Origin: Acidimicrobiia bacterium
Lineage (GTDB): Bacteria; Actinomycetota; Acidimicrobiia; Spongiisociales; Spongiisociaceae
Length of the DNA stretch: 64,000 nt
Direction: 5' to 3'
Assembly: GCA_041576165.1 (NCBI GenBank)
Contig: JBFGLM010000024.1
Location: forward strand, 10,481 to 74,480
Of the stretch, positions 3,976 to 30,205 are shown piece by piece (the first letter of the stretch is position 1; each line of letters opens with the position of its first letter). The position numbers were made by a program, and so were the translations under genes. The notes beneath the pieces were generated by a model. The model searched no databases, was not told the origin of the DNA, and saw nothing but the letters and a program-made list of their open reading frames with translations.

Positions 3976-6006
3976 GTGGACCTGATTCAGGACCTCAAGG
4001 AAACTCACCGCGAGCTCGGGCTCACCGACGACCAGGTCGTCGAAATGTATCGGCAGATGTTGCTGGCCCGCCGTGTCGACGATCGGATGTGGGCCATGAA
4101 CCGCCAGGGCCGAGCGCCCTTCGTTGTCTCAGCATCCGGGCATGAAGGCACCCAGATCGGCGTGGTGGCAGCACTCGACCGCAAGAAGGACTGGGCGCTG
4201 CCGTACTATCGCGATGTCGGGATGGCGCTGGCGTGGGGCATGACCCCGCTCGATCTGTTTCTGGGCGTCACATCCAAATCGACCGACCCGTCATCCGGCG
4301 GGCGGCAGATGCCCAATCACTGGTCGCATCGCGACCTGCGAATCCTCTCCCATTCCAGCCCCATCGCCACCCAGTTCCCCCATGCCTGCGGAATCGCGTA
4401 CTCACTCCGGACCCGCGGCTCGGACGCGGTCGTCGCCGTCCACGGCGGCGAAGGCTCGACCTCGGAAGGCGACTGGAGCGAGGCCATGAACTTCGCCGGC
4501 ATCCACCAGCTACCCGTGCTCTTCGTGATCGAGAACAACCAGTACGCCATCTCGGTGCCCGTCGAGGACGAGGTCGCGGGTCAGATCGCTGATCGGGCCC
4601 GCGGGTACGGCATTCACGGGGTCTTCGTGGACGGCAACGACGCGCTCGCCGTGTACAAGGTCACCAGCGAGGCGGTGAGGCGTGCCCGGGCCGGAGACGG
4701 GCCAACTCTGATCGAAGCCCAGACGTACCGCTACTACGCCCACACGAGCGATGACGATGACCGGCTGTACCGCACTCGGGAAGAGGTTGAGTACTGGCGC
4801 CGGCGCGATCCGCTGGCGGTGTTGCATCAATACCTGGTGGAAGCCCGGCTGCTATCCGAAGAGTCGGAAGCAGAGATGGAAGGGGAGATCGAACGGGAGA
4901 TTCGGGCGGCGGTGGCAGAGGCCGAAGCCTCACCGGATCCGACTGATGCATTCTCCGGTGTCTACCGGCGCCCCATTCCACCGCACCCGGCCACTACCGA
5001 GGTCCAACCGCCAGCGACCGGCGAGACCGTGAACCTCGTGACCGCTATCAATCGGACGCTCCATGAGATCTTCGAGCAGGACGATCGCGCCTTTCTGTTC
5101 GGCGAAGACGTGGCCGATCCGAAGGGTGGAGTTTTCAAAGCTTCGATCGGTCTGACCGACAAGTTCGGCCAAGTGCGAGCATTCAACAGCCCGCTGGCCG
5201 AATCACTGATCATCGGGCTGGCGCTGGGCATGGCTGCCGCCGGGGACAAACCATTCCCCGAGATCCAATTCGCCGACTTCATCCACCCTGCCTTCGACCA
5301 GATCGTGTCCGAGGTGGCCCGCTTGCATTACCGCAGCAATGGGGATTGGAGCTGTCCGATGGTCATCCGTGTGCCCTATGGCGGCGGGATCCATGGGGCC
5401 CTGTACCACTCTCAATCGATCGAAGCCTTCTACACACACGTCCCGGGCCTGAAAGTGGTAGTCCCCTCGAACCCGGCCGACGCGAAAGGGCTGCTGTGGG
5501 CGGCGTACGAGGATCCAGACCCGGTGATGTTCCTCGAACCAAAACGCCTCTACCGCCTGGTGAAGGCGCCGATGCCCCCAGGGCGCCACGTGGTTCCGCT
5601 GGGCAAGGCTGCGCTGCGGCGGACCGGTGAGCATCTGACGATCATCGCCTACGGCGCCATGGCGTACGAGGCAGAATCGGCGGCGTCGGAGCTTGCCTCG
5701 CTCGGGATCAACAGCGACGTGATCGATTTGCGGACGCTGAAGCCGCTGGACTGGGAGACCATCGCCGCTTCGGTCGCCAAGACCGGGCGGGTTTTGATCG
5801 TCCACGAGGACAACGAGTTCGTGGGATACGGCGCCGAGCTGGCGGCCCAGGTCGCCGATAAGGCGTTCGAACATCTCGATGCACCAGTACTGCGCTATGC
5901 CTCCCCCGATGTGCCGACGTTCCCCTTCGCCGAGTCGTTGGAGAAGCTGGTCATGCCGAACGCGGCCGGCATCGTCGATCGGGGCAAGTGGTTGGTCCAG
6001 TACTGA
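3976..6006 (+). CDS. fused E1 alpha/beta 2-oxoacid dehydrogenase (branched-chain type)
   Basis: TPP motif GEGSTSEG...ENN, YYAHTSDDD, beta-part FGEDV, EIQFADF, GGIHGALYHSQS; GAGGAG SD before GTG 3976. Confidence 0.92.
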   Translation: MDLIQDLKETHRELGLTDDQVVEMYRQMLLARRVDDRMWAMNRQGRAPFVVSASGHEGTQIGVVAALDRKKDWALPYYRDVGMALAWGMTPLDLFLGVTSKSTDPSSGGRQMPNHWSHRDLRILSHSSPIATQFPHACGIAYSLRTRGSDAVVAVHGGEGSTSEGDWSEAMNFAGIHQLPVLFVIENNQYAISVPVEDEVAGQIADRARGYGIHGVFVDGNDALAVYKVTSEAVRRARAGDGPTLIEAQTYRYYAHTSDDDDRLYRTREEVEYWRRRDPLAVLHQYLVEARLLSEESEAEMEGEIEREIRAAVAEAEASPDPTDAFSGVYRRPIPPHPATTEVQPPATGETVNLVTAINRTLHEIFEQDDRAFLFGEDVADPKGGVFKASIGLTDKFGQVRAFNSPLAESLIIGLALGMAAAGDKPFPEIQFADFIHPAFDQIVSEVARLHYRSNGDWSCPMVIRVPYGGGIHGALYHSQSIEAFYTHVPGLKVVVPSNPADAKGLLWAAYEDPDPVMFLEPKRLYRLVKAPMPPGRHVVPLGKAALRRTGEHLTIIAYGAMAYEAESAASELASLGINSDVIDLRTLKPLDWETIAASVAKTGRVLIVHEDNEFVGYGAELAAQVADKAFEHLDAPVLRYASPDVPTFPFAESLEKLVMPNAAGIVDRGKWLVQY

Positions 6007-15851: not shown

Positions 15852-17396
15852 CTACGGCGTACCCCAGCCGCCGCCTCCCGGTGTTCGGACCAGCAGGCGG
15901 TCGCCGGGCCGTACCTCCAAGGTCACCTTGCCGGGCAGACGTTCCTTGCGGCCGGCCCGGATCAGCCAATCCTCCCCGGTCGCGCCCGCTCCTCCCCCAT
16001 TCAGCCCCCATGGGGCGAGGCGGCGCCGCTCCCCCATCAATGACAGCGTGGCCGGCTCGGAGAATTCGATCTCCCGCTCGATGCCCTCGCCTCCCTGGTA
16101 CTGGCCGTCGCCGCCACTGCCGTGGCGGAGGCCGTAGCGGATGACCCGGAACGGGTAGTGCTGCTCGATTGATTCGGTCGGCGTGTTCTTGGTGTTGGTC
16201 ATCCCGGATTGGATGCCCGACTCGCCGTGACGCCCCGGCCGGGCGCCCTGTCCACCCGCCACCGTTTCGTAGTAGGCGAATCCGTCGTTGCCGACCAGGA
16301 CGTTGTTCATCGTCCCCTGAGACGCGGCCGGGACCCGACCCGGTGCCGCCTGGGCCAGCGCGCCGAGAACGGTGTCGGCGATTCGCTGGGAGGTCTCGAC
16401 GTTGCCGGCGGCTACCGCCACCGGGGCCCTTGCTGCGACCAGCGACGCCGGCCGGGTTGCCAGGGTGATCGGCCGGTAGCTGCCGCCGTTGGCCGGGACC
16501 GTCGGATCGGCGGCAACTCGCACGGCGTAGTAGAGACAGGAACGGGTCACGGCTTCCACTGCATTGATGTTGCCGGCAATCTGGTCCACGGTTCGGCTGA
16601 AATCGGCATGCAGCTCTCCGCCCTCGATGGTGATCGTTACCGAAATTCCCAGTGTGTCGTCATGCCACTCCATGGCGTCCTCAAACGCGTACGTGCCGGC
16701 GGGGAGTGCCGCAATCGCCGCTCGCATACGCCGTTCGCCGTAGTCGAGAAGCGCGTTGGTGATGGTGGCGAACCGGGCCGGGCCGTCCCGTCGAGCGAGC
16801 GCCAGGAACCGGGCCGCGCCTACCTCATTGGCGCCGAGCTGGGCGGACAGGTCACCGAGCCGTTCGGCCGGGGTCCTGGTTGCGGCGAGAAACGGTCCGG
16901 TGAACGACTCCAGCCACGCACCGTTGCGCACAGCCGGTACAGGCGAGACGACGATGCCTTCCTGGTCGACCCGGACGGCGTGGGCGGGCATCGAGCCGGG
17001 AGCTTCGCCTCCCACGTCCGCGTGATGCGCCCGGTTCCCAACCCAGCCGATGAGATCCGAACCCTCGAACACCGGCCGCACGATTGTCAGGTCATTGAGG
17101 TGGGTTCCGCCGTAGAACGGGTCGTTGACCGCGTACTGGACGCCGGGCTCGACACCCCGGCCAAACCGATCCACCACCGCAGCCACCGACGCCGGCATCG
17201 ACCCGAGGTGAACCGGGATGTGCTCGGCTTGTGCCAGCATGTCGCCACTCGCCACGAAGACGGCGGCCGAGCAGTCGGCCCGCTCCTTTATGTTGGGCGA
17301 ATACGCGGTCCGCCGTAGGACCACGCCCATCTCGTCGGCTACGGCCGCATACTCGTTGCGGGCTATCTCGAGGTCGACGGCTGTGACGGTCACCAT
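15852..17396 (-). CDS. hydantoinase B / 5-oxoprolinase beta-type subunit
   Basis: SPNIKERADCS, HIPVHLGSM, NDPFYGGTHLND, RAHHADVGG, TPGGGG. Confidence 0.92.
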   Translation of the reverse strand: MVTVTAVDLEIARNEYAAVADEMGVVLRRTAYSPNIKERADCSAAVFVASGDMLAQAEHIPVHLGSMPASVAAVVDRFGRGVEPGVQYAVNDPFYGGTHLNDLTIVRPVFEGSDLIGWVGNRAHHADVGGEAPGSMPAHAVRVDQEGIVVSPVPAVRNGAWLESFTGPFLAATRTPAERLGDLSAQLGANEVGAARFLALARRDGPARFATITNALLDYGERRMRAAIAALPAGTYAFEDAMEWHDDTLGISVTITIEGGELHADFSRTVDQIAGNINAVEAVTRSCLYYAVRVAADPTVPANGGSYRPITLATRPASLVAARAPVAVAAGNVETSQRIADTVLGALAQAAPGRVPAASQGTMNNVLVGNDGFAYYETVAGGQGARPGRHGESGIQSGMTNTKNTPTESIEQHYPFRVIRYGLRHGSGGDGQYQGGEGIEREIEFSEPATLSLMGERRRLAPWGLNGGGAGATGEDWLIRAGRKERLPGKVTLEVRPGDRLLVRTPGGGGWGTP

Positions 17397-19360
17397 TCGA
17401 TCTCCAGCGCACCGGTCTCGTGCACACGTACGCGCTCGCCGTCTGCGACAAATGTGGTGGCTTCGAGTTCCTCGACCACGGCCGGGCCGACCAATTCGGT
17501 CCCGGGCACCAGGGCCGGCCGCCACCACACGTCGACCTCATTGGGGGACTGGCCCGAGTCGCTGGTCACCACTTGCCGGCGGGGGCGCACCGGCTCACCG
17601 GTCGGGCGGACCGGCGGCAGCTCGTCGATCGTCATGGTGGGTTTCCCGATCGCAGCAGCCCGTATTGTCACGATCTCCACTGGATCGCCGGCCCGGGCAA
17701 AACCGTTGCGCAGATGGTGCGCGCGGTGGAACCGGTCGGCTACCGCACGCCAATCCATGGTTTCGTCGACTGGAATCGACGTCTCATGAGCCTGGCCGAT
17801 GTAGCGGACGTCCGCCACCAGGCGCACCTCGCGAGGGTCCGCGCCGGTGTCATCGAAAAACTCCCCCGCCGCCTGCCCGCGAAGCTCGGCCAGTCGGCCC
17901 GCCAGCGCCGCCGCGGTGTCTTCGCGGACCGTGAGGCTGCGCGCCAGGTCAACCCTGGGCGGGGACAGCAACAAGCCGAACGCAGAGAAGACCCCCGCGA
18001 TCGGAGGCACGATCACGCCTGCCATCTCGAGACGCCGGGCGAGGGCCGTCGCATGCAACCCGCCGGCGCCCCCAAATGCCACCAGCCTGGCACCGCGCGG
18101 GTCGGCGCCTTCTTCCACCGAGACCTTGCGGATGGCACGCTCCATGTGGGCTTCCACCACGTCCACCATGCCCCGCGCGGTTTCGCGGCCTGTGAGACCC
18201 AGCCGCTCCCCGACCGCGCCCAGCGCCACCGATGCGGCGGCGGGATGAAGGTGCAGATCACCGGCCAGCCGGCTGCCGCCGCCGATCCGGCCCAGTTCCA
18301 GGTTGGCGTCGGTCACGGCAGGCTCTGCCGCTCCCTTCCCGTAGCACGCCGGACCGGGATGCGCGCCTGCGCTGCGGGGGCCTACTCGCAACGCACCGCC
18401 GGCGTCGATCCAACCGACGCTGCCTCCGCCCGCACCCACCGTGTGAATCGCAACCGATGGCATGCGAATCGGGAAACCTTCGATCCAACGCTCGTAGGAA
18501 ACCTCCGGGATGCCGCCGTCGATCCGGGCGACGTCGGTCGAGGTCCCCCCCATGTCGAACGAAACCAGCCGGCGGTCCCCGAGCAACTCTCCGATGGCCG
18601 CAGCGGCCACCACACCACCCGCCGGACCGGAGAGCAGGATGGACACGGGAAGTTCGGCTGCTCGCTCGATCGGGATCAGGCCTCCTGAGGAGCGCATCAC
18701 CATCACCTGGCCCGGCAGCCCAGCGTCTCGCACCCGGGCGTGCAGGTGCTGCAGATAGGTGCCGGTTTCAGGGGCCAGAAATGCGTTCACGATGGTTGTG
18801 GTGGCGCGCTCGTACTCCCGAAACTCTGGGGCGACAACTGACGACCGCGATATCTCGACATCAGGCGGCAGCGCTGCCGCGACACGCTCCTCATCGCCGG
18901 GATGGGCGTATCCGTAAAGCAGGGATATGGCGACCGAATCAGGCCGACCGGCCGCCACCCGAGCGGCCAGGTCGGCCAACTCCCGGTCCGACCAGCTATC
19001 CCCATCGGACAAACGCCGGAGGCCGTGGCGACTGCTCCGCTCGACCAACGGGCGGGAGCGGTCGGCAAACGGGTCGTAGAGCGATGGCCGGTTCTGGCGA
19101 CCGATCTCGATGACATCCTCGAAACCCTCCGTCGTGACCAACGAGACACGCGCACCCCGGCGCTCCAGCAAGGCGTTGGTGGCGACGGTCGTACCGTGAA
19201 GAAGCGCCCCGGTGAGCCGCCCGGCCAATAACTCGACCGAACCCGCTATGACTGCGTCGCTCTGGTCCACGCTCGTCGGGGTTTTGGCGGTCAGGAGCCG
19301 TTCACCGTCCCACCACACGATGTCGGTGAACGTCCCGCCGACGTCGACGCCCAGGGTCAC
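17390..19360 (-). CDS. hydantoinase A / 5-oxoprolinase ATP-binding subunit
   Basis: GVDVGGTFTD, HGTTVATNALLER, SGPAGGV, DMGGTSTD, GAGGGS, PGPACYG. Confidence 0.93.
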   Translation of the reverse strand: MTLGVDVGGTFTDIVWWDGERLLTAKTPTSVDQSDAVIAGSVELLAGRLTGALLHGTTVATNALLERRGARVSLVTTEGFEDVIEIGRQNRPSLYDPFADRSRPLVERSSRHGLRRLSDGDSWSDRELADLAARVAAGRPDSVAISLLYGYAHPGDEERVAAALPPDVEISRSSVVAPEFREYERATTTIVNAFLAPETGTYLQHLHARVRDAGLPGQVMVMRSSGGLIPIERAAELPVSILLSGPAGGVVAAAAIGELLGDRRLVSFDMGGTSTDVARIDGGIPEVSYERWIEGFPIRMPSVAIHTVGAGGGSVGWIDAGGALRVGPRSAGAHPGPACYGKGAAEPAVTDANLELGRIGGGSRLAGDLHLHPAAASVALGAVGERLGLTGRETARGMVDVVEAHMERAIRKVSVEEGADPRGARLVAFGGAGGLHATALARRLEMAGVIVPPIAGVFSAFGLLLSPPRVDLARSLTVREDTAAALAGRLAELRGQAAGEFFDDTGADPREVRLVADVRYIGQAHETSIPVDETMDWRAVADRFHRAHHLRNGFARAGDPVEIVTIRAAAIGKPTMTIDELPPVRPTGEPVRPRRQVVTSDSGQSPNEVDVWWRPALVPGTELVGPAVVEELEATTFVADGERVRVHETGALEIEW

Positions 19361-19405: not shown

Positions 19406-19663
19406 ATGCCCGTATCGATCGAACCGACGCCCAATCCCAACGCATTGAAGTTCTCGGTCGGCCGCGATGTCGGCGGCCCCACCACATACGTTGCCGGCAA
19501 AGATGTCGACGACCCGATGTCGTCGTCGATCCTGGAGATCGAGGGGGTGACAAGTGTGTTCATGACCGCAGATTTCGTGACGCTCTCCAAGCATCCTGAC
19601 GCTACGTGGGACACGATCGCGCCAGCAGCCCAGAAGATCCTAGAGAGCTACTTCCCGGACTGA
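19406..19663 (+). CDS. stand-alone NifU/Nfu N-terminal domain protein
   Basis: IEPTPNPNALKF...IEGVTSVF..DFVTLSK....W. Confidence 0.85.
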   Translation: MPVSIEPTPNPNALKFSVGRDVGGPTTYVAGKDVDDPMSSSILEIEGVTSVFMTADFVTLSKHPDATWDTIAPAAQKILESYFPD

Positions 19664-20619
19664 TCTCTCGGCAGAGAGGACGGGCCGGAGCCGTCAACTA
19701 CCACTGAATAGGGCCACCGACCCGATGTGCCGTCACCCCATTCCACGACGACCCGCCACCGGGATCCGTCCGTCTCGGCACCGACGATACGCAGGCCTTC
19801 CCCGCTGTCGGGCAGCTGACTCCGCACACGCTCCAGCACCTGTGGGGGAGGCTCGGCGGGGTGCCATTCGACGGAGCCGACCGGAGGGGTCCCGGTGGGC
19901 AGCTCAACGGGGGCCGGAAAGTCGAGAACAGTTCCGGACCCGTCGGAACCAACCGCAACGGGCACCGTGACGGCCTGGATGTGACCGGCCCGATAGGACT
20001 CACCGTCCGCGGCCACCAAGGTCCGGTAGAGCACCGTCACCAGGTGGGTACCGTCACCCTCAGACTCGATCGATAACGCCCGCACCCAATCGACGTACGT
20101 CGCCAGGCCGGGCGGAGGTTCCGGCACCACGATCTGGCCGGCGAGGGCTGCTCGCACCTTCTCGACCCGGGCGGCATCCGAAGTGGAGAAATAGTCGAGG
20201 ACGAACCACTCGGCGCGCACGGCCGCTGCCCTCTCGCCGGTCGCCGGCGCGAACGCCATCAAATCGGCCTCTGTCACTATTTGCTCTGCGGAGGACACCG
20301 GTGTGGTGGGAGGCGGCACGGCGGCGCGCGTGTCGGCCGTGCGGTCGGATTGTTCGTCTGCCGGGTCGCCGAGCGCATTGGCCGAGACCGAATCTGGCGG
20401 AAGCGTGATCACGCTCGGCTCGGAGGGAGTGGTCCGGAAGGTCAGAATCGCGACCGCAGCAGCTACGGCAACCACCGCACCCAGCAGGTACGGAAGCCAG
20501 GGAGGCCGCTCGGGGGCATTCACGGTCAGCCGGTCCCACGGGATGTGCTCTATTACCTCGTCGCCCGGGCCGGCGCGGGAGTCGTCATCTGATAGGGGGC
20601 GATCGTCGTCGGGCGGCAC
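19648..20619 (-). CDS. single-TM protein with possible TcpC/VirB8-like extracellular domain
   Basis: N-terminal TM, Pro/Thr linker, then AEWFVLDYFS...VTVLYRT...VTVPVAV...VLDFPAPV; GGAG before GTG 20619; family call is by eye. Confidence 0.5.
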   Translation of the reverse strand: MPPDDDRPLSDDDSRAGPGDEVIEHIPWDRLTVNAPERPPWLPYLLGAVVAVAAAVAILTFRTTPSEPSVITLPPDSVSANALGDPADEQSDRTADTRAAVPPPTTPVSSAEQIVTEADLMAFAPATGERAAAVRAEWFVLDYFSTSDAARVEKVRAALAGQIVVPEPPPGLATYVDWVRALSIESEGDGTHLVTVLYRTLVAADGESYRAGHIQAVTVPVAVGSDGSGTVLDFPAPVELPTGTPPVGSVEWHPAEPPPQVLERVRSQLPDSGEGLRIVGAETDGSRWRVVVEWGDGTSGRWPYSVVVDGSGPSSLPRDQSGK

Positions 20620-20734
20620 AGCACTCCATCCCCTCCCGACGCCATTGCCACGATACGTGCGGAACACATGTCCCACAAGATCATCGTTTCGGCTGCCTAG
20701 GAACTGCGGTGGCGTCTACTAACGTTCCTGCCGC

Positions 20735-21367
20735 ATGGTACGGAATCCAGACCCAAAACCCGGTCGCTGGATCCTCCCTCTGGTCGTGCTGGGGATGGTC
20801 TTCTTCACCTGGGCGTTCGTGCAGCGGCTCGAACCCGAGGTGATCGCAGACGATGCCCCCATTTCCACCACCACAACTGTGGCCGAATCTGAGGGTGGAG
20901 AGGGTGAGACCGGCAGCGCGGAAGAGACTCCGGATGAGACCACGGCGACCACTCTCCCGGCCGATCTTGCCGCCTTCCTGACTGACATCGTCGCCGATCA
21001 GGAGGCACTCGCCGTACTCGCCACCGAGATGGACACCGCCAACGCCGCGTGGGACAACGACGAGGCCGGCTACGGAGAAACCGAGACCTCCTTGCTCGAA
21101 CTTCGCGATGAAGCCGCCGTGTTCCGTGACACGGTCGTGCTGCGCCAGGCCCCGGCCGGATACACCGACATCGCCTCCGCATTCGAAGATGCCGTAAACG
21201 CAGCGGAGGGTGTCGCCGGGTCGGCCGAAGACGTGCTGGCCGGTCTGCGGGCCCCGGACACCGGCCAGGCCCGCCGCTCGGCGCTGCTCGAGTTCCGTTC
21301 GGCAGCCGAGGCGTTCAATCAGGCAGTGGCGGCTATGGAGTTGGCAGCCGAGGGTGCCGCCGGCTGA
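20735..21367 (+). CDS. membrane-anchored acidic helical hypothetical protein
   Basis: N-terminal TM (WILPLVVLGMVFFTWAF), Thr/Glu linker, helical C-terminus. Confidence 0.7.
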   Translation: MVRNPDPKPGRWILPLVVLGMVFFTWAFVQRLEPEVIADDAPISTTTTVAESEGGEGETGSAEETPDETTATTLPADLAAFLTDIVADQEALAVLATEMDTANAAWDNDEAGYGETETSLLELRDEAAVFRDTVVLRQAPAGYTDIASAFEDAVNAAEGVAGSAEDVLAGLRAPDTGQARRSALLEFRSAAEAFNQAVAAMELAAEGAAG

Positions 21368-21442
21368 TCGTCCAGTCGACCGGGCCCATACCGATTCTGT
21401 GCGACGTAGACGCATATACCTTCGTGGACGTCCGGCACGCGC

Positions 21443-21486: not shown

Positions 21487-22494
21487 TCAGACCGTTGCGG
21501 CCGAGCAAACCGTTTCGGTGATCAGCCGGGTCACGATGTACGGGTCGCAGTTTGCATTGGGTCGGCGGTCCTCGATGTACCCCTTGCCCTCTTTCTCCAC
21601 CTGCCAGGGAATCCGGACCGACGCCCCCCGGTCAGACACAGCGTAGGAGAAGGTATCCCAGCGCTGGGTCTCGTGCTCACCGGTGAGGCGCAGTTCGATC
21701 CCTGCTCCGTAGTGCTTGATGTGTTCCTCGGCATTCTTCCCGAGGGCCTCACATGCTGCGATCACGGCGTCGTATGTCTCACGCATCTGATTGGTCGAGA
21801 AGTTGGTGTGACAGCCGGCCCCGTTCCAATCGCCGGGCATCGGCTTGGGATGGATCGAAATCTCGAGGTCGTAGTCCTCGCCGATGCGGTACAGCATCCA
21901 ACGGGCCAGGATCAGCTGGTCGGCCATCTCCACCGGGTCGAGCGGCCCGATCTGGAACTCCCATTGACCGGTCATGACCTCGGCGTTGGTCCCGGAGATC
22001 GCCAACCCGGCATCCATGCAGGCCTGGCTGTGGGCATCGGCTATCTGGCGGCCGTAGATGTCGGCCGCGCCGACCCCGCAGTAATAAGGGCCCTGCGGCG
22101 CCGGATATCCACCTTTGGGGAATCCGTGCGGATGACCGTCGTCCATGAAGTTGTATTCCTGCTCCATGCCGAACCAGGGCTCGAAGGACGCGTACTTGTT
22201 GGCGACCTCGACGGTGGCCGCGCGCGTGTTAGTGGGGTGTGGCTCGAGGTCGGTCGTCAAACATTCGGCAAGCACCAGGACGTCATCGCGTCCGCGGATC
22301 GGGTCCGGAACGAGCTTCACGGGTCGCAAGACCACATCAGACGCATCACCGGGTGCCTGGTTCGTGCTGGAACCGTCAAAACCCCAGATCGGCGGTTCGG
22401 CGCCGTCAGGAAGCACCTTGGTCTTCGACCGCAGCAGGTGGGACGGCTCAGTGCCGTCGGTCCAGATGTACATAGCGCGATACGGCAATGTCAT
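21487..22494 (-). CDS. glnII: glutamine synthetase type II
   Basis: 335 aa; YIWTDG, LRSKTK, WGFDGSSTNQA, NAEVMTGQWEFQIG, DWNGAGCHTNFST, RLTGEHET, DRGASVRIP, GYIEDRRP. Confidence 0.95.
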   Translation of the reverse strand: MTLPYRAMYIWTDGTEPSHLLRSKTKVLPDGAEPPIWGFDGSSTNQAPGDASDVVLRPVKLVPDPIRGRDDVLVLAECLTTDLEPHPTNTRAATVEVANKYASFEPWFGMEQEYNFMDDGHPHGFPKGGYPAPQGPYYCGVGAADIYGRQIADAHSQACMDAGLAISGTNAEVMTGQWEFQIGPLDPVEMADQLILARWMLYRIGEDYDLEISIHPKPMPGDWNGAGCHTNFSTNQMRETYDAVIAACEALGKNAEEHIKHYGAGIELRLTGEHETQRWDTFSYAVSDRGASVRIPWQVEKEGKGYIEDRRPNANCDPYIVTRLITETVCSAATV

Positions 22495-22596
22495 TCCTTA
22501 CCTTCTAGGCGGTCCCCGAATGCCAGGGTGCCGCCGCCCGACTTGCCCGAGGCGAGCGCGTTCCAGCGCCCGCCATGAACACGATGACATCAAGCA

Positions 22597-22634
22597 GTTT
22601 CGGAGCGGTTGCCGAAGTGTGAACACTGTGTTTC
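22597..22634 (-). promoter_or_regulatory. GlnR-box-like array
   Basis: Minus strand GAAAC-n6-TTCAC-n6-GCAAC-n6-GAAAC with exact 11-bp period; resembles the actinomycete gTnAc-n6-GaAAc GlnR box. Confidence 0.7.
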
Positions 22635-22716
22635 GGGTCCGCCGATCCGGCCCGGTGGTCTGGAGGTCCACCGACCGGAGGGCTACGGTTCGCGAAGAAC
22701 ACCCAGTGGAGCAGAG

Positions 22717-24042
22717 ATGAGCAAGCAGGCCGAATACGTGCTGCGGACCGTGGGCGAACGCGGGGTGCGCTTCGTCAGACTGTGGTTCACCGACGTGCAG
22801 GGGTTTCTCAAGTCCGTTGCGATCAGCCCTACCGAACTGGAGGTTGCCTTCGATGAGGGCATGACCTTCGACGGTTCCGCCATCGACGGCTACGCCCGGA
22901 TCCAGGAAGCGGACATGGTTGCGAAACCGGACCCCGCCTCGTTCCGGATTCTCCCATGGCGTCCCGACCAGCAGGTCGCCGCCATGTTCTGCAACATCCA
23001 GCGGCCCGACGGCACGTCCTTCGACGGCGATCCGCGTTACGTCCTCCAGCGGAACCTGCAACGAGCCGCCGACCTCGGTTATTCGTTCTTCGTAGGACCT
23101 GAGGTGGAGTACTTCTACTTCCGGGACTCAGGCCCCGAGCCCCAGGTGCTCGATCGAGGCGGCTACTTCGATCTCACCCCGCTCGATGTCGCCCAGGAAT
23201 ACCGGCGGAGCACGATCAACGCGCTCGAACAGCTCGGCATCCCGGTCGAGTACAGCCACCATGAGGTGGCGCCCTCACAACACGAGATCAACCTCCGGTA
23301 CACCGACGCATTATCGATGGCCGACTCGGTGATGACGTTCCGCCTGACCGTCAAGGAGATTGCTCTCGAAAACGGAATCTATGCCACCTTCATGCCCAAG
23401 CCGCTGGAGCAGCACGACGGGAGCGGCCTCCACCTGCACCTGTCGATGTTTCAGGGTGATCAGAACGCGTTCTACGAACCGGGGGCCGAGACCGGGCTGT
23501 CGAAGATCGCAGCAAAGTTCATCGCGGGCATCCTGCACCACGCTCCCGAGTTCACCGCTGTGACGAACCAATGGGTCAACTCGTACAAACGGCTCGTGCG
23601 CGGCTTCGAGGCTCCGATCTACACGTACTGGGCCCGCAACAACCAGTCGGCGCTGGTGAGGGTGCCCACCGTCAAGGCGGGCAAACCCGACAGCACCCGG
23701 ATCGAGTATCGGGCAGCCGACGCCGCCTGTAACCCATACCTGGCGTTTTCGGTGTTGCTTGCGGCGGGATTGCGGGGCATCGAGCAGAGCTATGAACTCC
23801 CACCCGAGCTGACCGGCAATGCACTCGACATGAGCTCTCGCCAGCGACGCGCGGCCGGCCTCACCCGCCTTCCGGAAACGCTGTCCCAGGCGTTGGACGC
23901 CATGGAATCCTCGGAGCTCGTGGCGAGCGCGCTGGGCGAACACACCTTCAACTGGTTCTTGCGCAACAAGCGCAAAGAGTGGGATCGTTACCAGCAACAC
24001 GTCTCCCGATTCGAACTCGAGGAATACCTCCCGGTGCTGTGA
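22717..24042 (+). CDS. glnA: glutamine synthetase type I-alpha homolog (GlnA2-like) with altered active-site residue
   Basis: VRLWFTD, FDGSAIDG, GPEVEYF, HHEVAPSQHE, FMPKP, YKRL..GFEAP, RIEYR, NPYLA; NRSA appears as NQSA. Confidence 0.9.
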   Translation: MSKQAEYVLRTVGERGVRFVRLWFTDVQGFLKSVAISPTELEVAFDEGMTFDGSAIDGYARIQEADMVAKPDPASFRILPWRPDQQVAAMFCNIQRPDGTSFDGDPRYVLQRNLQRAADLGYSFFVGPEVEYFYFRDSGPEPQVLDRGGYFDLTPLDVAQEYRRSTINALEQLGIPVEYSHHEVAPSQHEINLRYTDALSMADSVMTFRLTVKEIALENGIYATFMPKPLEQHDGSGLHLHLSMFQGDQNAFYEPGAETGLSKIAAKFIAGILHHAPEFTAVTNQWVNSYKRLVRGFEAPIYTYWARNNQSALVRVPTVKAGKPDSTRIEYRAADAACNPYLAFSVLLAAGLRGIEQSYELPPELTGNALDMSSRQRRAAGLTRLPETLSQALDAMESSELVASALGEHTFNWFLRNKRKEWDRYQQHVSRFELEEYLPVL

Positions 24043-24677
24043 TGCAGATCGCGGTTTTTCCGTCGGTGCTCTCTCAGGAGCTGAGTGAAGCCCTCCTGCT
24101 GGGTGGCGTCGCGGTCAAGCTGCTCGATGACTCCAACACGGCCGGGATGGACACCAGCGAGTGGTCCGCGCTGCTGGTTGAGCTGGGCGACGATCCGCCG
24201 CGGATGTTGCGCGAAGCCGGGCGGGTGGTGGCGGACACCGGTTTGCCGGTTCTCGTCGTCGCAGCCCGGGATCAGCTGCCCAATTTCGCCACCGAGTTCG
24301 CATTCGATGATTTTGTGGTGGGACCGCCTGACGCACTCGAGCTGAAGGTACGGCTGAGCCGCCTCGGCGGCTCCGAGCCGGACGCCGAGATCCTCGAATA
24401 TCAGGACCTGGTCCTCAACACTGCGACGTATCAGGCCACCGTCGGCGGCAAGCCTGTCGATCTGACGTACATGGAATACGAGCTCCTTCGTTATTTCGTC
24501 GAAAACCGGGGCCGGGTGTGGAGTCGCGAACAGCTGCTCTCCAAGGTCTGGGGCTACGACTATTTTGGGGGCGCTCGCACCGTCGACGTCCACGTGCGGC
24601 GACTCCGGGCGAAGCTGGGGGAAGAGCGCTCCAGCTGGATAACGACCGTCCGGTCAGTCGGCTATCGATTCGGGTGA
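24042..24677 (+). CDS. glnR: GlnR-like OmpR-family regulator with degenerate receiver domain
   Basis: DLTYMEYELL...GRVWSREQLL..VWGYDYFGGARTVDVHVRRLRAKLG..ITTVRSVGYRF matches the actinomycete GlnR DNA-binding domain; TGATG overlap with glnA. Confidence 0.85.
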   Translation: MQIAVFPSVLSQELSEALLLGGVAVKLLDDSNTAGMDTSEWSALLVELGDDPPRMLREAGRVVADTGLPVLVVAARDQLPNFATEFAFDDFVVGPPDALELKVRLSRLGGSEPDAEILEYQDLVLNTATYQATVGGKPVDLTYMEYELLRYFVENRGRVWSREQLLSKVWGYDYFGGARTVDVHVRRLRAKLGEERSSWITTVRSVGYRFG

Positions 24678-25811
24678 AAACACTTCCAGATACAAGGCAC
24701 GGGCTGCAAAAGCCTGACGCACATCCCCCACAACGTCTTCAAAGAACTCGGCCCGGTAGTTGGGGTCGGTGACTGCGGTCACCGCGAAGTAGAGACCGGC
24801 GAACGCAGCCAGGAATCCGGCGACCCGCAACAGCTCCTCGGTGAAGATGACCGAGCGGTCGAACAGCGTCGCCTGCCACAGCACGTTGGGTGCCCGACCT
24901 ATCCACGACGTGATGGTGCCCTCGCCGAGGGCCAGCACGCCGAACAGGGCCAGAAATCCGCCGACGAGGAGGGCAACCAGCAGCACCTGCAGCGCCTGGC
25001 CGAACAGGATCACCAACCCAACATTGACCCACTGCCGCCCGCGCAGTGGTTTGGCCGGCGGGGATTCCGACCGGGGCCGGAGGCTCGCCGCCGGGCTGTT
25101 GGCACATAGCTCGAAGACTCGATCCCAGGTCTCGAAGCGTCCGAGACCCTCGACCTCGTTGGGCAGTCGAAAGATCGAGAACAAAGCACCGAACAACGCG
25201 AACAGCCCCACCGTCGCGACAAACAACGGGCCGAACAGGCCGGACGCCATCTGCCAAACCTCGGCATTGATGAACAGGAAGGTCACGAACAACAGCAGCA
25301 GCGGCAGCGCCCTCGCAAACAACCGGATCGTGTCGCCCAACTGTCGGAACAGGCGCTTGCTGGCCCAGATCGTGATCGGGACGAGGGCATAGCTGGTGCC
25401 GAAATAGATAACCGCCAAAATCACGACGTTGAGCGCCACGATGCCCAACGACCCGGTCAGATTTCCGCCGAACAGCAACGGCACCAAGGCGGGAACAAAC
25501 ACAAATACCCCCAGCTCGACCGAGCCTATCGAGTGGGGAAGCTCGAGTGACCGGCGGCCCCGCCAGCGGTTGATCGCCGCCCACGCCGCAACCACGAACA
25601 CGAAACCTCCAAGTGCGCCCAGGGTGTTGGCCCACCACGACCGGAAGTTGAGCGCACCCAGCGCTTCGACGAGAAAGACGACCGTGAGAAGCGGGGCGGC
25701 CCTGGTGAGAATGTCGCTCGACGCCGAGTATCCCTCGATGAGATGCGGAAGACCGCGGCGGATGAACCACCGTTCGATGTCGCGCAGCTCGGCGTCCCGT
25801 CGGTACGTCAT
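24654..25811 (-). CDS. integral membrane protein (actinobacterial type)
   Basis: ERWFIRRGLPH N-terminus, ARALPLLLLFVTFLFINAEVWQ, many TM helices; 24-bp convergent overlap with glnR. Confidence 0.75.
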   Translation of the reverse strand: MTYRRDAELRDIERWFIRRGLPHLIEGYSASSDILTRAAPLLTVVFLVEALGALNFRSWWANTLGALGGFVFVVAAWAAINRWRGRRSLELPHSIGSVELGVFVFVPALVPLLFGGNLTGSLGIVALNVVILAVIYFGTSYALVPITIWASKRLFRQLGDTIRLFARALPLLLLFVTFLFINAEVWQMASGLFGPLFVATVGLFALFGALFSIFRLPNEVEGLGRFETWDRVFELCANSPAASLRPRSESPPAKPLRGRQWVNVGLVILFGQALQVLLVALLVGGFLALFGVLALGEGTITSWIGRAPNVLWQATLFDRSVIFTEELLRVAGFLAAFAGLYFAVTAVTDPNYRAEFFEDVVGDVRQAFAARALYLEVFSPESIAD

Positions 25812-25990
25812 GAAGCGATTGTCGTGAGTCTCGCATGCGCCACCAAGGATCTGCAGTGATTGGGCATTGGGGGCGGGACGCCGGTCACCATGGCCGGGTG
25901 CTATCAGCTGCCACGCGCCGGTGCTAGTGCCCATCGGCTGACGCCGTTTGCCTCTGGCCCGAGTCTCACCGCCTGACGGACCATAGGAGC

Positions 25991-27211
25991 GTGGCGACGG
26001 ACGAGGGGCTCCGGCGGGAGCTCACTTTGACCGGGCTGGTCCTGTACGGCCTCGGAACCACGATCGGTGCGGGGATATATGCACTCACCGGCGAGATCGC
26101 CGGCGTTGCGGGCCGGCATGCGCCCCTTTCGTTCATGGTGGCAGCGCTGCTGGCGGCCGCCACCGGGCTCGGTTTCGCCGAGCTGACCGGCCGCTTGCCG
26201 AAGGCGGCGGGTGAAGCTGTGTTCGTTCGCCATGCGTTTGGCCTGCCCGTCGCGTCGAAGGCAGTAGGCGCAGCTGTGGTAGCCGCCGGTCTCGTAGCCG
26301 GGGCCGCGATCACCAATGCATTTGCCGGCTATCTCAGCGAGATAACCCGGATACCCAAGGCGCTCGCCGTGTTCTTGCTGGTTGGAACACTCGGGGCGTT
26401 CGCGCTGATCGGCGTCAAGCTCTCCGTCGCGATCGCAGGCACGTTCACTGTGATCGAGGTCATCGGGCTCGGCATAGTGCTCTGGTTCGGAGCCCCCCGC
26501 ATAGACGACCTTGCCGGGCTGGTGCGCGATGCGATGGTGCCGGCTCTCGAGGCTGACGCCATCTTCGGTGTCCTCTCCGGCGCTTTTCTGGCCTTTTTCG
26601 CATTTCTCGGCTTCGAAGACATCGACTCGGTGGCGGAGGAGACCATCGACGCCCGCCGCACCCTGCCCCGGGCGATTCTCTGGACGCTGGGCATAACTGC
26701 GGTTCTGTATGTGACCGTGGCATTCGTGGCCGTGGGTACGTTGTCGCCGGCCCGGCTGGCCGCGGCCGACGCTCCGCTCGCTGCCCTCGCCCGTGCCAGC
26801 GGCGGGCCAGGAGACCTCTTGGCGGTGGTCGGGACGCTGGCGATGGTGAACGGGGCACTGGTGCAGCTGGTCATGGTTCCGAGGATCCTCTATGGAATGG
26901 CGAATCTCGGGGACGCCCCTGCTTTGTTCGCCCGCATCAATGAGAGGACGGCCACTCCGGTGGTCGGGACCCTGACCGCCATGGCCGCAGTTACAGCTCT
27001 CGCGCTCCTTTTCGATCTCGGTCCGCTCGCTCGCGTGACTTCGGCCCTCACGATCGGCGTGTTCGCTTCGGTGAATGCCGCCCTCATCCGGATCAAACGG
27101 CGGGAAGGCCGGCCCGACAGCTACGAAGTGCCCGGCTGGGTGCCGGCCGGGGGCCTGCTGATCTCGTTGGGCCTGTTCGGGGCCGAGCTCGTACGCCTGT
27201 TCGGAGGCTGA
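25991..27211 (+). CDS. APC-family amino acid permease
   Basis: LRREL...GLGTTIGAGIY, FFAFLGFEDI...AEE, ~12 TM; AGGAG SD. Confidence 0.9.
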   Translation: MATDEGLRRELTLTGLVLYGLGTTIGAGIYALTGEIAGVAGRHAPLSFMVAALLAAATGLGFAELTGRLPKAAGEAVFVRHAFGLPVASKAVGAAVVAAGLVAGAAITNAFAGYLSEITRIPKALAVFLLVGTLGAFALIGVKLSVAIAGTFTVIEVIGLGIVLWFGAPRIDDLAGLVRDAMVPALEADAIFGVLSGAFLAFFAFLGFEDIDSVAEETIDARRTLPRAILWTLGITAVLYVTVAFVAVGTLSPARLAAADAPLAALARASGGPGDLLAVVGTLAMVNGALVQLVMVPRILYGMANLGDAPALFARINERTATPVVGTLTAMAAVTALALLFDLGPLARVTSALTIGVFASVNAALIRIKRREGRPDSYEVPGWVPAGGLLISLGLFGAELVRLFGG

Positions 27212-28012: not shown

Positions 28013-30205
28013 TCAGTAGATGAGTCGTTCCAGCACGCGCTGGGAGAACGGGCGCTGACCCTGGTCAGGAGCGTGCACCACCAGCACCGGCGCACCGACC
28101 ACCTCGGAGATGCGCTCACTCAGGTCGGTGCCGATACCGGCCCGCGACGCACCCATGATCACCAGATCCGACCCTCGCGCCCTGGTCCGGATCGCACTGA
28201 TGAGGTCGTCTGAGCGCTCGATCTCGCACGCCATCTCGTTCCGCACGAGCTCCGCCAGCTGAGCGTGGTAGTCGCGAATGACCTGCTGCTGGATCTCGGT
28301 TGCATCCGACTCGAGTACGTGCATCAACCGGATCTTGGAGCCTTCTGCGTACGCCACCCGGGTGGCGGTATCGATCTTGGCGACGTCAAACGGGCTGGCC
28401 GCCCCGAGCACCGTGATGGTGTTGAGCGACGTAAGCGGCTCGTTCCCCAGATACATGACATCCGAATGGGCGTGCTCTCGAATCCAGGTGAGGTCGAAGC
28501 CATGCCGGTGACGCTCGGCACGCTCACCCAGCTCGCCGAGGATCAGGTCCACCGCGTGCCGGTCCGCATAGTCGACGAGCGCCTGCTGAGCGTCTGGCCC
28601 CCGCGGCCGGACCACCGCGATGTCGAGCCCGAGGTCTTCGGCGACGTCCTTGGCGCCGATGCGGAAGGGGTCGTCGGGACGCGGGAGCCGGTCCCGCCTC
28701 CACCACAGCGCACCCTGCCGTTCGCGGTCGACCCGGGCAAGCGTGACCCTTCCGTCCTCGGCCATCACCGCGCGAGCCAGCCTGAGCAGATCACGCAAGC
28801 GGGCAGTGCTGATCGAGTCATGCACCGGGATCAGCACGTGATCCCGTCCCGGCGACGCGAGCTCCTCGGTGGTGGTCGCCACCAGCCTCCCGATCGAACG
28901 CAGCCGCAGCGCGTCGAGCGCCGCACTCTCCCGGCTTGCGCGCGAGCGCCCGAACCAGCGATACCAGGCGACGCCACCGACCACGATCAGGAGCGAACCG
29001 ACGATGGACACGGTCCCGAGCTGGGTGAGCAAGCCCAGTGAAGCCACGATCCCGAAGATCTGGATCCACGGGTAGAAGGGCGAGCGGAAGTCGGGTCGGT
29101 ACCACGCCGGGCTCGATTCCCGGAAGGCGATCAGGCTGAGGTTGATGAGTGAGAAGACCGTCACCTGGAACGCGGACGCCAGCTTGGCGAGCTCGATGAG
29201 CGGCACGAATGCGATCAGCGCCACCATGACCGAACCGGTGAGCGCGATGCTGGTGATCGGCGTACCGGTCCGGGCACTGACGTGGCTGAGCGCTCGGGGC
29301 GCGAGACGCTCGCGAGCCATGGCCAACGGATATCGTGAGGACGACAGCAGACCGGCGTTCGCCATCGACACCAACGCCAGGACGGCTGTGGCAGATATCA
29401 GGCCCACCCCGAAGCGCCCGAGGAATTGCTCGGCGGTCGTCGCCACCGGCGCCGGGTCATCGCCCAGTGCAGCCAGCGGTCCGGTCCCCACGATCACCGC
29501 CACGATTGACGGATATACGATCAGCATCAGGCCCAGCGAGGTGAGCATGCCGCGCGGTATCGTCTTGCCGGGATCCTTGACCTCCTCGGCCACCGACGAG
29601 ATCTTGGTGACCCCCGCATACGACACGAAAACGAGCCCGGTCGCCGCCATGAGGCCCTTGAACCCCGCCGGCATGAAAGGTTCGAAGGCTCCCGGATCCA
29701 GGTTGGTGGTACCTGACAAGACGAAAAAGGTCAGCACCCCGAGCACCGCGCTCACCACAACCGTTTGGAAACTCCCCGATTGCTTCACGCCGGCCATGTT
29801 GAGCCCGATGAGGAGCAAGGCCAGCACAACACCAACTGGCCTGATCGGAATATCCACAAAGAACACGAGATATCCGCCAAGACCCACCAGGGCGAACGCC
29901 GACTTGAACACCAGGGCAAACCAGACACCGAACCCGGCCACAGTGCCCATGACCGGACCCATGGCCCGGTCGATGAACAGGTACGAGCCCCCAGCCTTGG
30001 GCATGGCGGTCGACATCTCGGATTTGCTCAGAGCCGCCGGAACGACCACCAGACCAGCCAGGAAATAGGCCAGGACCGCGGCAGGACCCGCGATGTCTAT
30101 GGCCAGGCCCGGCAGAACAAAAATCCCGCTGCCGATCATCGCACCGAGGCTGACGGTGAAGACGGCCGACAGCCCCAGGTTGCGTTGCAGTTCCGCCGTA
30201 GCCAT
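28013..30205 (-). CDS. APC amino acid permease fused to tandem universal-stress-protein-like domains
   Basis: GAMIGSGIFVLPG, FVSYAG...VAEEVKDP; C-terminal HVLIPV, DLILGE, RLMHV, DLVIMGAS, PVLVVH. Confidence 0.85.
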   Translation of the reverse strand: MATAELQRNLGLSAVFTVSLGAMIGSGIFVLPGLAIDIAGPAAVLAYFLAGLVVVPAALSKSEMSTAMPKAGGSYLFIDRAMGPVMGTVAGFGVWFALVFKSAFALVGLGGYLVFFVDIPIRPVGVVLALLLIGLNMAGVKQSGSFQTVVVSAVLGVLTFFVLSGTTNLDPGAFEPFMPAGFKGLMAATGLVFVSYAGVTKISSVAEEVKDPGKTIPRGMLTSLGLMLIVYPSIVAVIVGTGPLAALGDDPAPVATTAEQFLGRFGVGLISATAVLALVSMANAGLLSSSRYPLAMARERLAPRALSHVSARTGTPITSIALTGSVMVALIAFVPLIELAKLASAFQVTVFSLINLSLIAFRESSPAWYRPDFRSPFYPWIQIFGIVASLGLLTQLGTVSIVGSLLIVVGGVAWYRWFGRSRASRESAALDALRLRSIGRLVATTTEELASPGRDHVLIPVHDSISTARLRDLLRLARAVMAEDGRVTLARVDRERQGALWWRRDRLPRPDDPFRIGAKDVAEDLGLDIAVVRPRGPDAQQALVDYADRHAVDLILGELGERAERHRHGFDLTWIREHAHSDVMYLGNEPLTSLNTITVLGAASPFDVAKIDTATRVAYAEGSKIRLMHVLESDATEIQQQVIRDYHAQLAELVRNEMACEIERSDDLISAIRTRARGSDLVIMGASRAGIGTDLSERISEVVGAPVLVVHAPDQGQRPFSQRVLERLIY

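Follow-up and report, generated by a model that had tools for sequence, protein, structure and literature searches.

The locus described here raises the question of whether a glutamine synthetase (GS) homologue that lacks a catalytic arginine, and whose gene runs into that of a GlnR-type regulator, is an enzyme or a sensor of nitrogen state. It lies in a 64,000-nucleotide stretch of DNA from an Acidimicrobiia bacterium (the window, on contig C24), taken from a metagenome-assembled genome (MAG) of 161 contigs and 5.1 Mb that is 96.5% complete with 7.5% contamination. The locus is best explained as a nitrogen-assimilation core, in which a gene for a working type II GS (GSII), glnII, is divergent from a glnA2-glnR operon, with one GlnR-box-like operator between them. 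The arginine in question, that of the NRS motif, is replaced by Gln in the window protein and has been lost within Acidimicrobiia through at least six to eight separate changes. The features on which the argument draws are the following:

21487-22494, minus strand: glnII, type II glutamine synthetase, 335 aa, intact (NF041605, Pfam).
22597-22634, plus strand: operator-like array of four 5-mers with an 11-bp period (sequence, shuffles, orthologous upstream regions).
22717-24042, plus strand: glnA2, GlnA2-type GSI-alpha homologue, 441 aa, with Gln310 in place of Escherichia coli R339 (TIGR00653, alignments).
23644-23646, plus strand: CAG codon of Gln310, NNQSA for the canonical NRSA (codon reading, alignment to 8s59).
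24040-24044, plus strand: TGATG, overlap of the glnA2 stop and the glnR start (sequence).
24042-24677, plus strand: glnR, OmpR-type regulator, 211 aa (PF00486, matches to 8hig and 8hih, AlphaFold2 (AF2) model).

The product of glnA2 scored 470.1 bits against TIGR00653 (cut-off 429.15), 409 bits against PF00120 and 93.9 bits against PF03951. With both domains present and the model above its cut-off it is a GSI-alpha protein, and its best solved relatives are 8s59, 8tfb and 4lnf. It is 56-65% identical to GlnA2 orthologues in other Actinomycetota and, judged via these relatives, belongs to the GlnA2 orthologous group, the GSI-beta and GlnA3/4-like paralogues being only 33-43% identical to it. 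Such an orthologue was found in 238 of the 251 genomes of an even sample of the phylum (E <= 1e-110), usually in single copy, with two matches in some. Against the gamma-glutamylputrescine synthetase model NF045547 the window protein reached 326.9 bits for a cut-off of 650, which leaves it outside that family. The list of open reading frames (ORFs) starts glnA2 at TTG 22609; we place the start at ATG 22717, because orthologues align from the first to third residues of that product and a GGAG lies 8-11 nt upstream. The gene ends with TGA at 24040-24042 and glnR begins with ATG at 24042-24044, a start supported by orthologous GlnR proteins, which align from residues 1-5; at such an overlap the two genes are probably translationally coupled.

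On the other side of a 222-bp spacer, glnII reads without stops from ATG 22494 to its stop at 21487, its product scores 582 bits against the NF041605 equivalog (cut-off 500), which makes it a GlnII protein, and its own arginine, in DRGASVRIP, is present. The whole assembly contains three GS-family genes, namely glnA2, glnII and a GlnA3/4-like gene on contig C43 that reads NRTA, together with one PII gene; neither a GSI-beta gene nor a GlnE domain was found in this assembly, at the completeness and contamination given above. With only these three GS-family genes, GSII is therefore the sole canonical GS found in the assembly. Among relatives, the divergent neighbour of glnA2 is a GSI-beta gene (...SQRNRSAAVRIP...), glnII, or both, and a true GS gene is directly upstream and divergent in most of the fetched loci, while two members of the window's clade, L017 and L020, have no GS in the flank. 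A first-pass annotation of the window, made by a model from the letters and their translations, had already described an intact and divergent glnII, the overlap of the GSI-alpha stop with the glnR start, and a second GS beside the altered one, and all three descriptions stand.

The codon at 23644-23646 is CAG (Gln), within CGC AAC AAC CAG TCG GCG. In the HMMER alignment to the GSI-alpha protein 8s59, window ARNNQSALVRVP lies over SAQNRSSLIRIP ('arnnqsalvrvp' over 'saqnrsslirip'), and this alignment, read against the residues listed in Table 2 of PMC8394153, puts Gln310 in the place of E. coli R339 (papers are cited here by their PMC numbers). The full catalytic set in that list comprises D50, E129, E131, Y179, E212, E220, N264, G265, H269, H271, R321, E327, R339, R344, E357 and R359. 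The window protein does not carry the full set, having Q310 for R339, D234 for N264 and A55 for S53; the remainder is present. The metal and ligand residues E129/E131, H182-E183, Q188-H189-E190, H239, H241, R292, E330 and R332 are kept, as are G235, R315 (the R344 equivalent), R61 (GYARIQE) and the ammonium-site residues, that is, D52, the Tyr of GGYFD and the flap residue E298 (GFEAP). The first-pass annotation had read NQSA for NRSA at this codon and had listed the metal ligands, the flap Glu and the Arg of GYARIQE as retained, in agreement with the alignment. It had also given weight to a DGSG in place of the usual NGSG; the reading is correct (D234), but it is without diagnostic value, since GlnA2-type proteins in which the NRS Arg is retained show Q, D, P, F, N or A at the N264 position. 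In E. coli, the R339C substitution raises the KM for ATP and for Glu 40-100-fold and lowers kcat to a similar extent (Dhalla 1994, cited in PMC12018205). By analogy, the Gln310 protein would be reduced in catalysis, a poor ligase that may still bind its ligands.

How the substitution is distributed was followed in two sets of relatives. The first, which was selected by similarity, combined 19 loci of the same order or family with 80 from public genome contigs and came to 96 rows after removal of 3 duplicates. Here the window belongs to a clade of 20 rows (SH-like approximate likelihood ratio test, SH-aLRT, 98; two rows, L015 and L019, come from the unpublished genomes G039 and G028) that carries Q at the NRS site in 17, E in 2 and R in 1 (L018, AHSHRAA), Gln at this site being common to relatives at 63-88% identity. 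A second loss clade, made up of L043 and L057, reads NNSSALARVP, and a clade of 13 rows reads NNRSVIVNVP, with Asn for the second arginine (R344 equivalent); the arginine losses of both clades are independent of that in the window clade. L018 (genome G004), which is nested in the Gln clade, reads AHSHRAALVRVP, with Arg at the site and altered flanking residues, on a contig that ends 304 bp after the gene; its Arg may be a reversal.

The second set was an even sample of 151 Acidimicrobiia genomes, the window's own included and no unpublished genomes used, with an orthologue threshold of E <= 1e-120. A GlnA2 orthologue was found in 108 of them; 98 further orthologues were fetched and all 108 were aligned. 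Trees were built with FastTree and as an IQ-TREE quick tree, with the motif columns removed. These data revealed that (i) the NRS residue is R in 50 proteins, Q in 42, E in 10, K in 3, S in 2 and P in 1, so that 58 of the 108 are non-R, while the R344 equivalent is Asn in one; (ii) D52, E131, E183, E190, H239, R292, E330 and R332 are retained in all 108, which argues for continued selection on the site, with some variation at E129 (D in 18, Q in 1), H241 (N in 1) and the flap Glu (Asp in 26); (iii) both trees give 8 changes between R and non-R (7 if K is grouped with R) and 12 multistate changes, with 6 independent R/non-R pairs on starred branches; and (iv) the window's order is non-R in all 36 sampled members, the window included (35 Q, 1 E), and the remaining 22 non-R proteins are scattered over other families. 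The NRS Arg has thus been lost through at least six to eight separate changes. Gln310 is neither a sequencing error nor private to this genome, the outcomes that the first-pass annotation had named as fatal to its proposal, as it is common to relatives at the identities given above and occurs in 42 of the 108 class genomes. The Glu found in ten genomes would stand at the gamma-phosphate contact; it should repel the gamma-phosphate and is difficult to square with phosphoryl transfer of the normal kind.

Outside Acidimicrobiia both arginines are kept in all 100 orthologues fetched, out of 136 non-class GS rows from which unpublished genomes were left out. The arginine loss is accordingly a feature of Acidimicrobiia. 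Farther afield, from a library of 1.84 billion proteins clustered at 50% identity we aligned the best 150 cluster representatives; of the 140 alignments that covered the NRS site, R was read in 119 and another residue in 21, many of these 21 with intact metal ligands, although such representatives over-weight odd sequences. The description of the NRS Arg as near-invariant, made in the first-pass annotation, was therefore too strong. The two top matches in this library (P0004 and P0005) are exceptionally long, at 4424 and 2757 aa, and contain 12 and 6 separate stretches that resemble GS (about 34% identity); they represent either in-frame tandem arrays of whole GS units or gene-calling artefacts.

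Several candidate companions of the loss were tried and dropped. Co-variation with Y195 (versus H), A365 and P295 was striking only in the similarity-selected set; in the even class sample Y195 also occurs in 29 R-type proteins, and the independent-pairs test gave a median p of 1. We take the Y195 column to be the adenine-stacking position. R295 was rejected as a basic flap residue that might compensate, since its column varies in the clade (R, K, Q, A, P, S, E or G).

The tie between glnA2 and glnR is far more regular than the state of the NRS site. By coordinate comparison, glnR is directly downstream and on the same strand in 105 of the 108 class genomes with GlnA2, whether R is kept or not; in the remaining three, the GS gene stands at a contig end (one genome) or no GlnR match was found at E <= 1e-28 (two genomes). 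The gaps between the two genes are mostly 3-110 nt, and larger where GlnR aligned by its C-terminal half alone. Outside the class, the even phylum sample of 251 genomes was represented by 150 of 267 GS matches and 150 of 181 GlnR matches, so that the linkage counts, which include coordinates from nine unpublished genomes, are lower bounds. Among the 126 non-Acidimicrobiia Actinomycetota with a listed GS match, 86 also have a GlnR match among those listed; glnR is adjacent on the same strand in at least 30 (by matches, at least 13 with the GS gene first and at least 17 with glnR first), within 25 kb in at least 28, and on another contig or far off in 28, while 40 have no GlnR match listed. The glnA2-glnR neighbourhood thus extends far beyond Acidimicrobiia, which argues for an old functional tie. 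The 100 fetched non-class proteins, all of which keep R, divide into 29 adjacent to glnR, 22 within 25 kb of it, 28 with it elsewhere and 21 without a listed GlnR. Adjacency to glnR alone is hence no predictor of arginine loss, and the co-occurrence of R-to-Q with glnR linkage, proposed as a check in the first-pass annotation, was not seen in its simple form. An earlier comparison of loss and linkage in the 96-row set, in which the three loss clades were all linked and the 16 unlinked rows all read R, involved too few events and is superseded.

Some families depart from this picture. Forty-three class genomes have no GlnA2 orthologue, including all 35 of one family with genomes of about 1 Mb (f16); in 32 of these 35 a GlnR-like gene is kept, with only its C-terminal DNA-binding half aligning, apparently a naturally occurring GlnR that has no GlnA2. 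Among the matches listed, a non-class family (f50, e.g. L228-L246) has two GlnA2-type copies per genome, one of them directly behind glnR, the reverse of the Acidimicrobiia order; in family f41 glnR is 2-4 kb off on the opposite strand, and several other families have it on the same strand, 7-19 kb upstream. Of the 24 genomes placed in the family of the window (G001-G024), 22 are without a GlnA2-type orthologue, their best matches being 33-36% identical, whereas the two that have GlnA2 (G004 and G005) carry the closest sequences of that group, at 75-80%; either GlnA2 has been lost in most genera of the family or the family placement of the MAG is loose. The closest public locus (L042), which has a GS 88% identical and the same order of glnII and glnR, belongs to a MAG titled Pirellulaceae and is most likely a mis-binned Acidimicrobiia contig.

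The regulator is a GlnR by its nearest solved matches, 8hig (E 6e-37) and 8hih (3.2e-35), both GlnR chains from transcription-activation complexes, with RegX3 next at 7.8e-23; its OmpR winged helix scores 99.3 bits against PF00486, and it shares the recognition region ...VWGYDYFGGARTVDVHVRRLRAKLG... with actinomycete GlnR. Pfam sees only this winged helix and does not recognise a receiver domain. An AF2 model built with 58 orthologues (mean predicted local distance difference test score, pLDDT, 85.2) places a receiver-like beta-alpha pattern at residues 2-108, followed by the winged helix, the N-terminal domain being predicted to take a (beta-alpha)5 fold with a beta1-alpha5 pattern. The position aligned to the phospho-acceptor Asp of solved GlnR is Glu47, so that the conserved Asp50 is absent, and in other Acidimicrobiia GlnR proteins this column is A, C, D, E or M; D90, F91, P95, E100 and R104, in alpha4-beta5-alpha5, are invariant in Acidimicrobiia GlnR. 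The protein ends ...VGYRFG at the winged helix, with no C-terminal tail. It is an orphan regulator: its neighbours are glnA2 upstream and, downstream, a convergent 426-aa ORF without a Pfam match, with no kinase beside it, and it is the single GlnR-like gene of the assembly, the next best paralogue being 39% identical. The first-pass annotation had described actinomycete GlnR in general as an orphan, and had named 22590-22640 for a DNA-binding test; within that region lies the conserved operator-like array at 22597-22634.

This array reads GTTTC-n6-GTTGC-n6-GTGAA-n6-GTTTC with an 11-bp period (GAAAC/TTCAC/GCAAC/GAAAC on the opposite strand). It occupies the stretch 83-120 bp upstream of glnA2 and 103-140 bp upstream of glnII. 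Its three-box pattern occurs nowhere else in the window and was matched in none of 100 shuffles. Of 96 orthologous upstream regions, 35 carry the core of the array, GTTGC-n6-GTGAA, mostly at a distance of 78-120 bp from the GS start and in two cases at 167 and 279 bp; by group, the core is present in 13 of 20 of the window clade, 13 of 13 of the R344N clade, 9 of 48 other Acidimicrobiia, none of 13 non-Acidimicrobiia and none of 2 of the R-to-S clade. The boxes on the opposite strand resemble the a-site and b-site boxes of actinomycete GlnR. A gTnAc motif is given for GlnR in PMC8998196, and the 5-nt GlnR box is named as the basic binding unit in PMC10704036. We regard the array as a conserved candidate operator, apparently shared by glnII and glnA2-glnR. 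In a genome search with a 38-nt matrix the glnII/glnA2 site was the only one above 14 bits; a loose three-box search of the genome gave 14 matches, against 8-15 in shuffles, so that no regulon could be called from it, and a scan of 22400-24800 for sigma-70 promoters returned no sites. A 27-nt three-box sequence with one base differing was seen at C35:30097 and C35:32463, 2.4 kb apart, on either side of an OmpR-type regulator gene (C35:30587-31069).

That GlnA2 is a ligand-sensing GS paralogue which partners the co-translated orphan GlnR is, to our mind, a real possibility that we put at somewhat under an even chance. Bulk glutamine synthesis would then be carried out by GSII here and by GSI-beta in relatives, releasing GlnA2 from that task; GlnA2 would be retained as a ligand-binding partner of GlnR that reports the Glu/Gln/ATP state; its signal would probably pass through the receiver-like domain, since the GlnR is without a C-terminal tail of the Bacillus type; and GlnR would act on the shared operator, setting both glnII and its own glnA2-glnR operon. 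The contact between the two proteins and the direction of regulation are what we infer from this arrangement. A sensing GSI beside a catalytic GSII, convergent on the Bacillus logic, had been proposed in the first-pass annotation, and that proposal is supported in part. A predicted 1:1 complex of GlnA2 (94-row alignment) and GlnR (58-row alignment), run without controls, gave ipSAE values of 0.02 and 0.00 and a mark of 0.32, values that speak neither for nor against a contact. Several observations weigh against sensing by GlnA2. The 50 class orthologues that keep the Arg do so in the same operon, and all 29 glnR-adjacent orthologues outside the class keep it as well, so that linkage does not predict loss; 21 of the 140 nearest cluster representatives lack it too, making the residue less invariant in GSI-alpha-like proteins; and non-R branches are not obviously longer than those of their R sisters (L145 0.13 versus L147 0.15; L172 0.15 versus L149 0.18). 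Adjacency of a regulator and an enzyme is equally what a plain autoregulated operon looks like, the strict keeping of both metal sites and of the R321/R359 equivalents fits catalysis as well as sensing, and the genome-level absences come from a MAG with 7.5% contamination.

An explanation that we hold to be about equally likely is that GlnA2 is a plain enzyme, be it a slow GS or a ligase that attaches gamma-glutamyl to some other amine, which tolerates the loss of the Arg, with glnR in an autoregulated nitrogen operon and no protein-protein signalling. The metal ligands and R321/R359 equivalents kept in 108 of 108 class members, the TIGR00653 score above cut-off and the occurrence of R-type and non-R proteins in the same operon all suit it. 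So do reports that Streptomyces coelicolor GlnA2, which is without S53 and N264, is a gamma-glutamylpolyamine synthetase whose promoter is bound by GlnR (PMC8998196), the window protein likewise having A55 and D234 at these positions, and that all four GS isoforms of Mycobacterium tuberculosis (Mtb) have some activity (PMC13740247). The 40-100-fold losses in kcat and KM reported for E. coli R339C (PMC12018205), and the Glu in ten class members, argue against it. R307, three residues before the site and present in 104 of the 108, might reach into the site, but 3 of the 58 non-R proteins are without R307 as well, and it is just as frequent among the orthologues from outside the class (74 of 100), none of which has lost the NRS Arg; R307 therefore does not explain a class-specific loss and was rejected as a substitute particular to Acidimicrobiia. 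For an amine ligase in particular, the score against the gamma-glutamylputrescine synthetase model is low (327 bits versus 650) and the ammonium site (D52, the Tyr of GGYFD, E298) is kept. Simple neutral drift, at a position of lower importance in GlnA2-type proteins than in the GS of E. coli, seems improbable to us: the 50 R and 58 non-R proteins in one context, the R-bearing L018 nested in the window's Q clade and the 21 of 140 representatives without Arg would all follow from it, yet R is present in 100 of 100 non-class orthologues across far greater divergence, and the 36 of 36 non-R members of the window's order (35 Q, 1 E) indicate that the state is held and not freely drifting. We give still less credit to an action of GlnA2 on the neighbouring true GS, through mixed oligomers with GSI-beta or GSII or by titrating its regulators, with the glnR linkage as incidental co-regulation. 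GSII forms oligomers of the decamer type and GSI-beta of the dodecamer type. Such an action would suit the true GS (glnII, GSI-beta or both) found directly upstream and divergent in most fetched loci, and subunit exchange between GS proteins is on record (PMC9249791), but the neighbour switches between GSII and GSI-beta while GlnA2 is unchanged, and L017 and L020 have no GS in the flank.

The sensing role proposed for GlnA2 would find parallels in published systems. The nitrogen signal and sensor of GlnR were still unsettled in a 2023 review, which refers to 'unknown nitrogen signal(s)' and to 'unknown sensory kinase(s)' and describes Amycolatopsis GlnR as using Asp50 for dimerisation (PMC10704036). 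The glnA2 gene is essential in Mycobacterium smegmatis, a requirement that neither L- nor D- nor iso-glutamine relieves, yet it can be deleted when glnR is overexpressed, for which the authors raise stabilisation of GlnR by GlnA2 as one possibility (PMC6142876). Mtb GlnA2 in its apo form assembles as a tetradecamer, as do the inactive GS-GlnR complexes of Bacillus and Listeria; its activity is low, and its ATP binding is computed to be weak (PMC13740247). In Bacillus, glutamine-feedback-inhibited GS binds GlnR and switches on its DNA binding (PMC9249791). The M. smegmatis genetics, the Mtb tetradecamer and the Bacillus precedent would all fit a sensing GlnA2. If sensing holds across the phylum, the GS-GlnR logic known from Bacillus would have been reinvented convergently around a regulator of an unrelated family. 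In that broader form, GlnA2 would be the general nitrogen sensor of OmpR-type GlnR across Actinomycetota, controlling its dimerisation or DNA binding through Gln, Glu and ATP at the GS site; the ancestral pair would have been split in Streptomyces and Mycobacterium, and Acidimicrobiia would represent an end state in which catalysis was repeatedly given up and sensing kept. We think this extension unlikely as it stands. The locus nevertheless ties together two questions, nitrogen sensing by GlnR and the function of GlnA2, on which reports include synthesis of D-glutamine, glutamylation of polyamines and, in M. smegmatis, an essentiality without explanation; the natural R and Q forms of GlnA2 are ready-made controls.

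Like the glnRA operons of Bacillus and Listeria, the window combines a GSI-alpha gene and a nitrogen regulator in one operon, and its GlnA2 keeps the equivalents of R62 and E304 (R61 and E298). The roles of these two residues in Bacillus GS were reportedly described by Murray et al. in 2013. Unlike Bacillus glnRA, the regulator here has an OmpR winged helix and a receiver-like domain and is not of the MerR type, which places it outside the Bacillus circuit; the gene order is reversed, with the GS gene first; the GlnR is without the autoinhibitory C-terminal tail that in Bacillus enters the GS cavity; and whereas Bacillus GS is a working enzyme, there is here, as known from the genes, a separate GSII beside a linked GS without the catalytic Arg. 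The circuit would thus work like Bacillus glnRA without belonging to it; GS-coupled nitrogen regulation is known, and this arrangement of it would be new. No description of an Acidimicrobiia glnA2-glnR operon or of the Arg loss was found in a search of open-access text and bioRxiv.

With the actinomycete GlnA2 proteins (Rv2222c/MtbGS2, M. smegmatis GlnA2 and SCO2241) the window protein shares the GSI-alpha subgroup and, with that of S. coelicolor, the replacement of the S53 and N264 equivalents; among them are also found the genetic tie to glnR (M. smegmatis) and the tetradecameric apo form (Mtb). Unlike the window protein, the GlnA2 proteins of the model species presumably keep the NRS Arg, and their glnA2 genes are, we assume, not adjacent to glnR. 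The window GlnR resembles actinomycete GlnR in its best matches (8hig/8hih), its recognition region, the lack of a partner kinase beside it and a 5-mer operator at an 11-bp period, and differs in Glu47 for Asp50, at a position unconserved in Acidimicrobiia, and in a receiver domain unseen by Pfam. In S. coelicolor glnII-glnRII a GlnR-like OmpR regulator is, we believe, likewise encoded near glnII; here, by contrast, the assembly has one GlnR-like gene, separated from glnII by a GS paralogue. GlnRII is described in the GlnR review (PMC10704036).

The remaining genes around the locus were inspected for their domains. Beyond glnII, a hydantoinase/oxoprolinase pair occupies 15852-19360 on the minus strand, with a B subunit of 558 aa (PF02538, 611 bits) and an A subunit of 656 aa (PF01968/PF05378), which may be a 5-oxoprolinase feeding glutamate. 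The two minus-strand ORFs between these genes and glnII, at 19648-20676 and 20681-21415, have no Pfam match. The 426-aa ORF convergent with glnR (24654-25934, minus strand) overlaps its end by 24 nt, and is followed by two amino-acid permease genes (PF13520/PF00324) at 25991-27211 on the plus strand and 28013-30205 on the minus strand, one of which encodes 730 aa.

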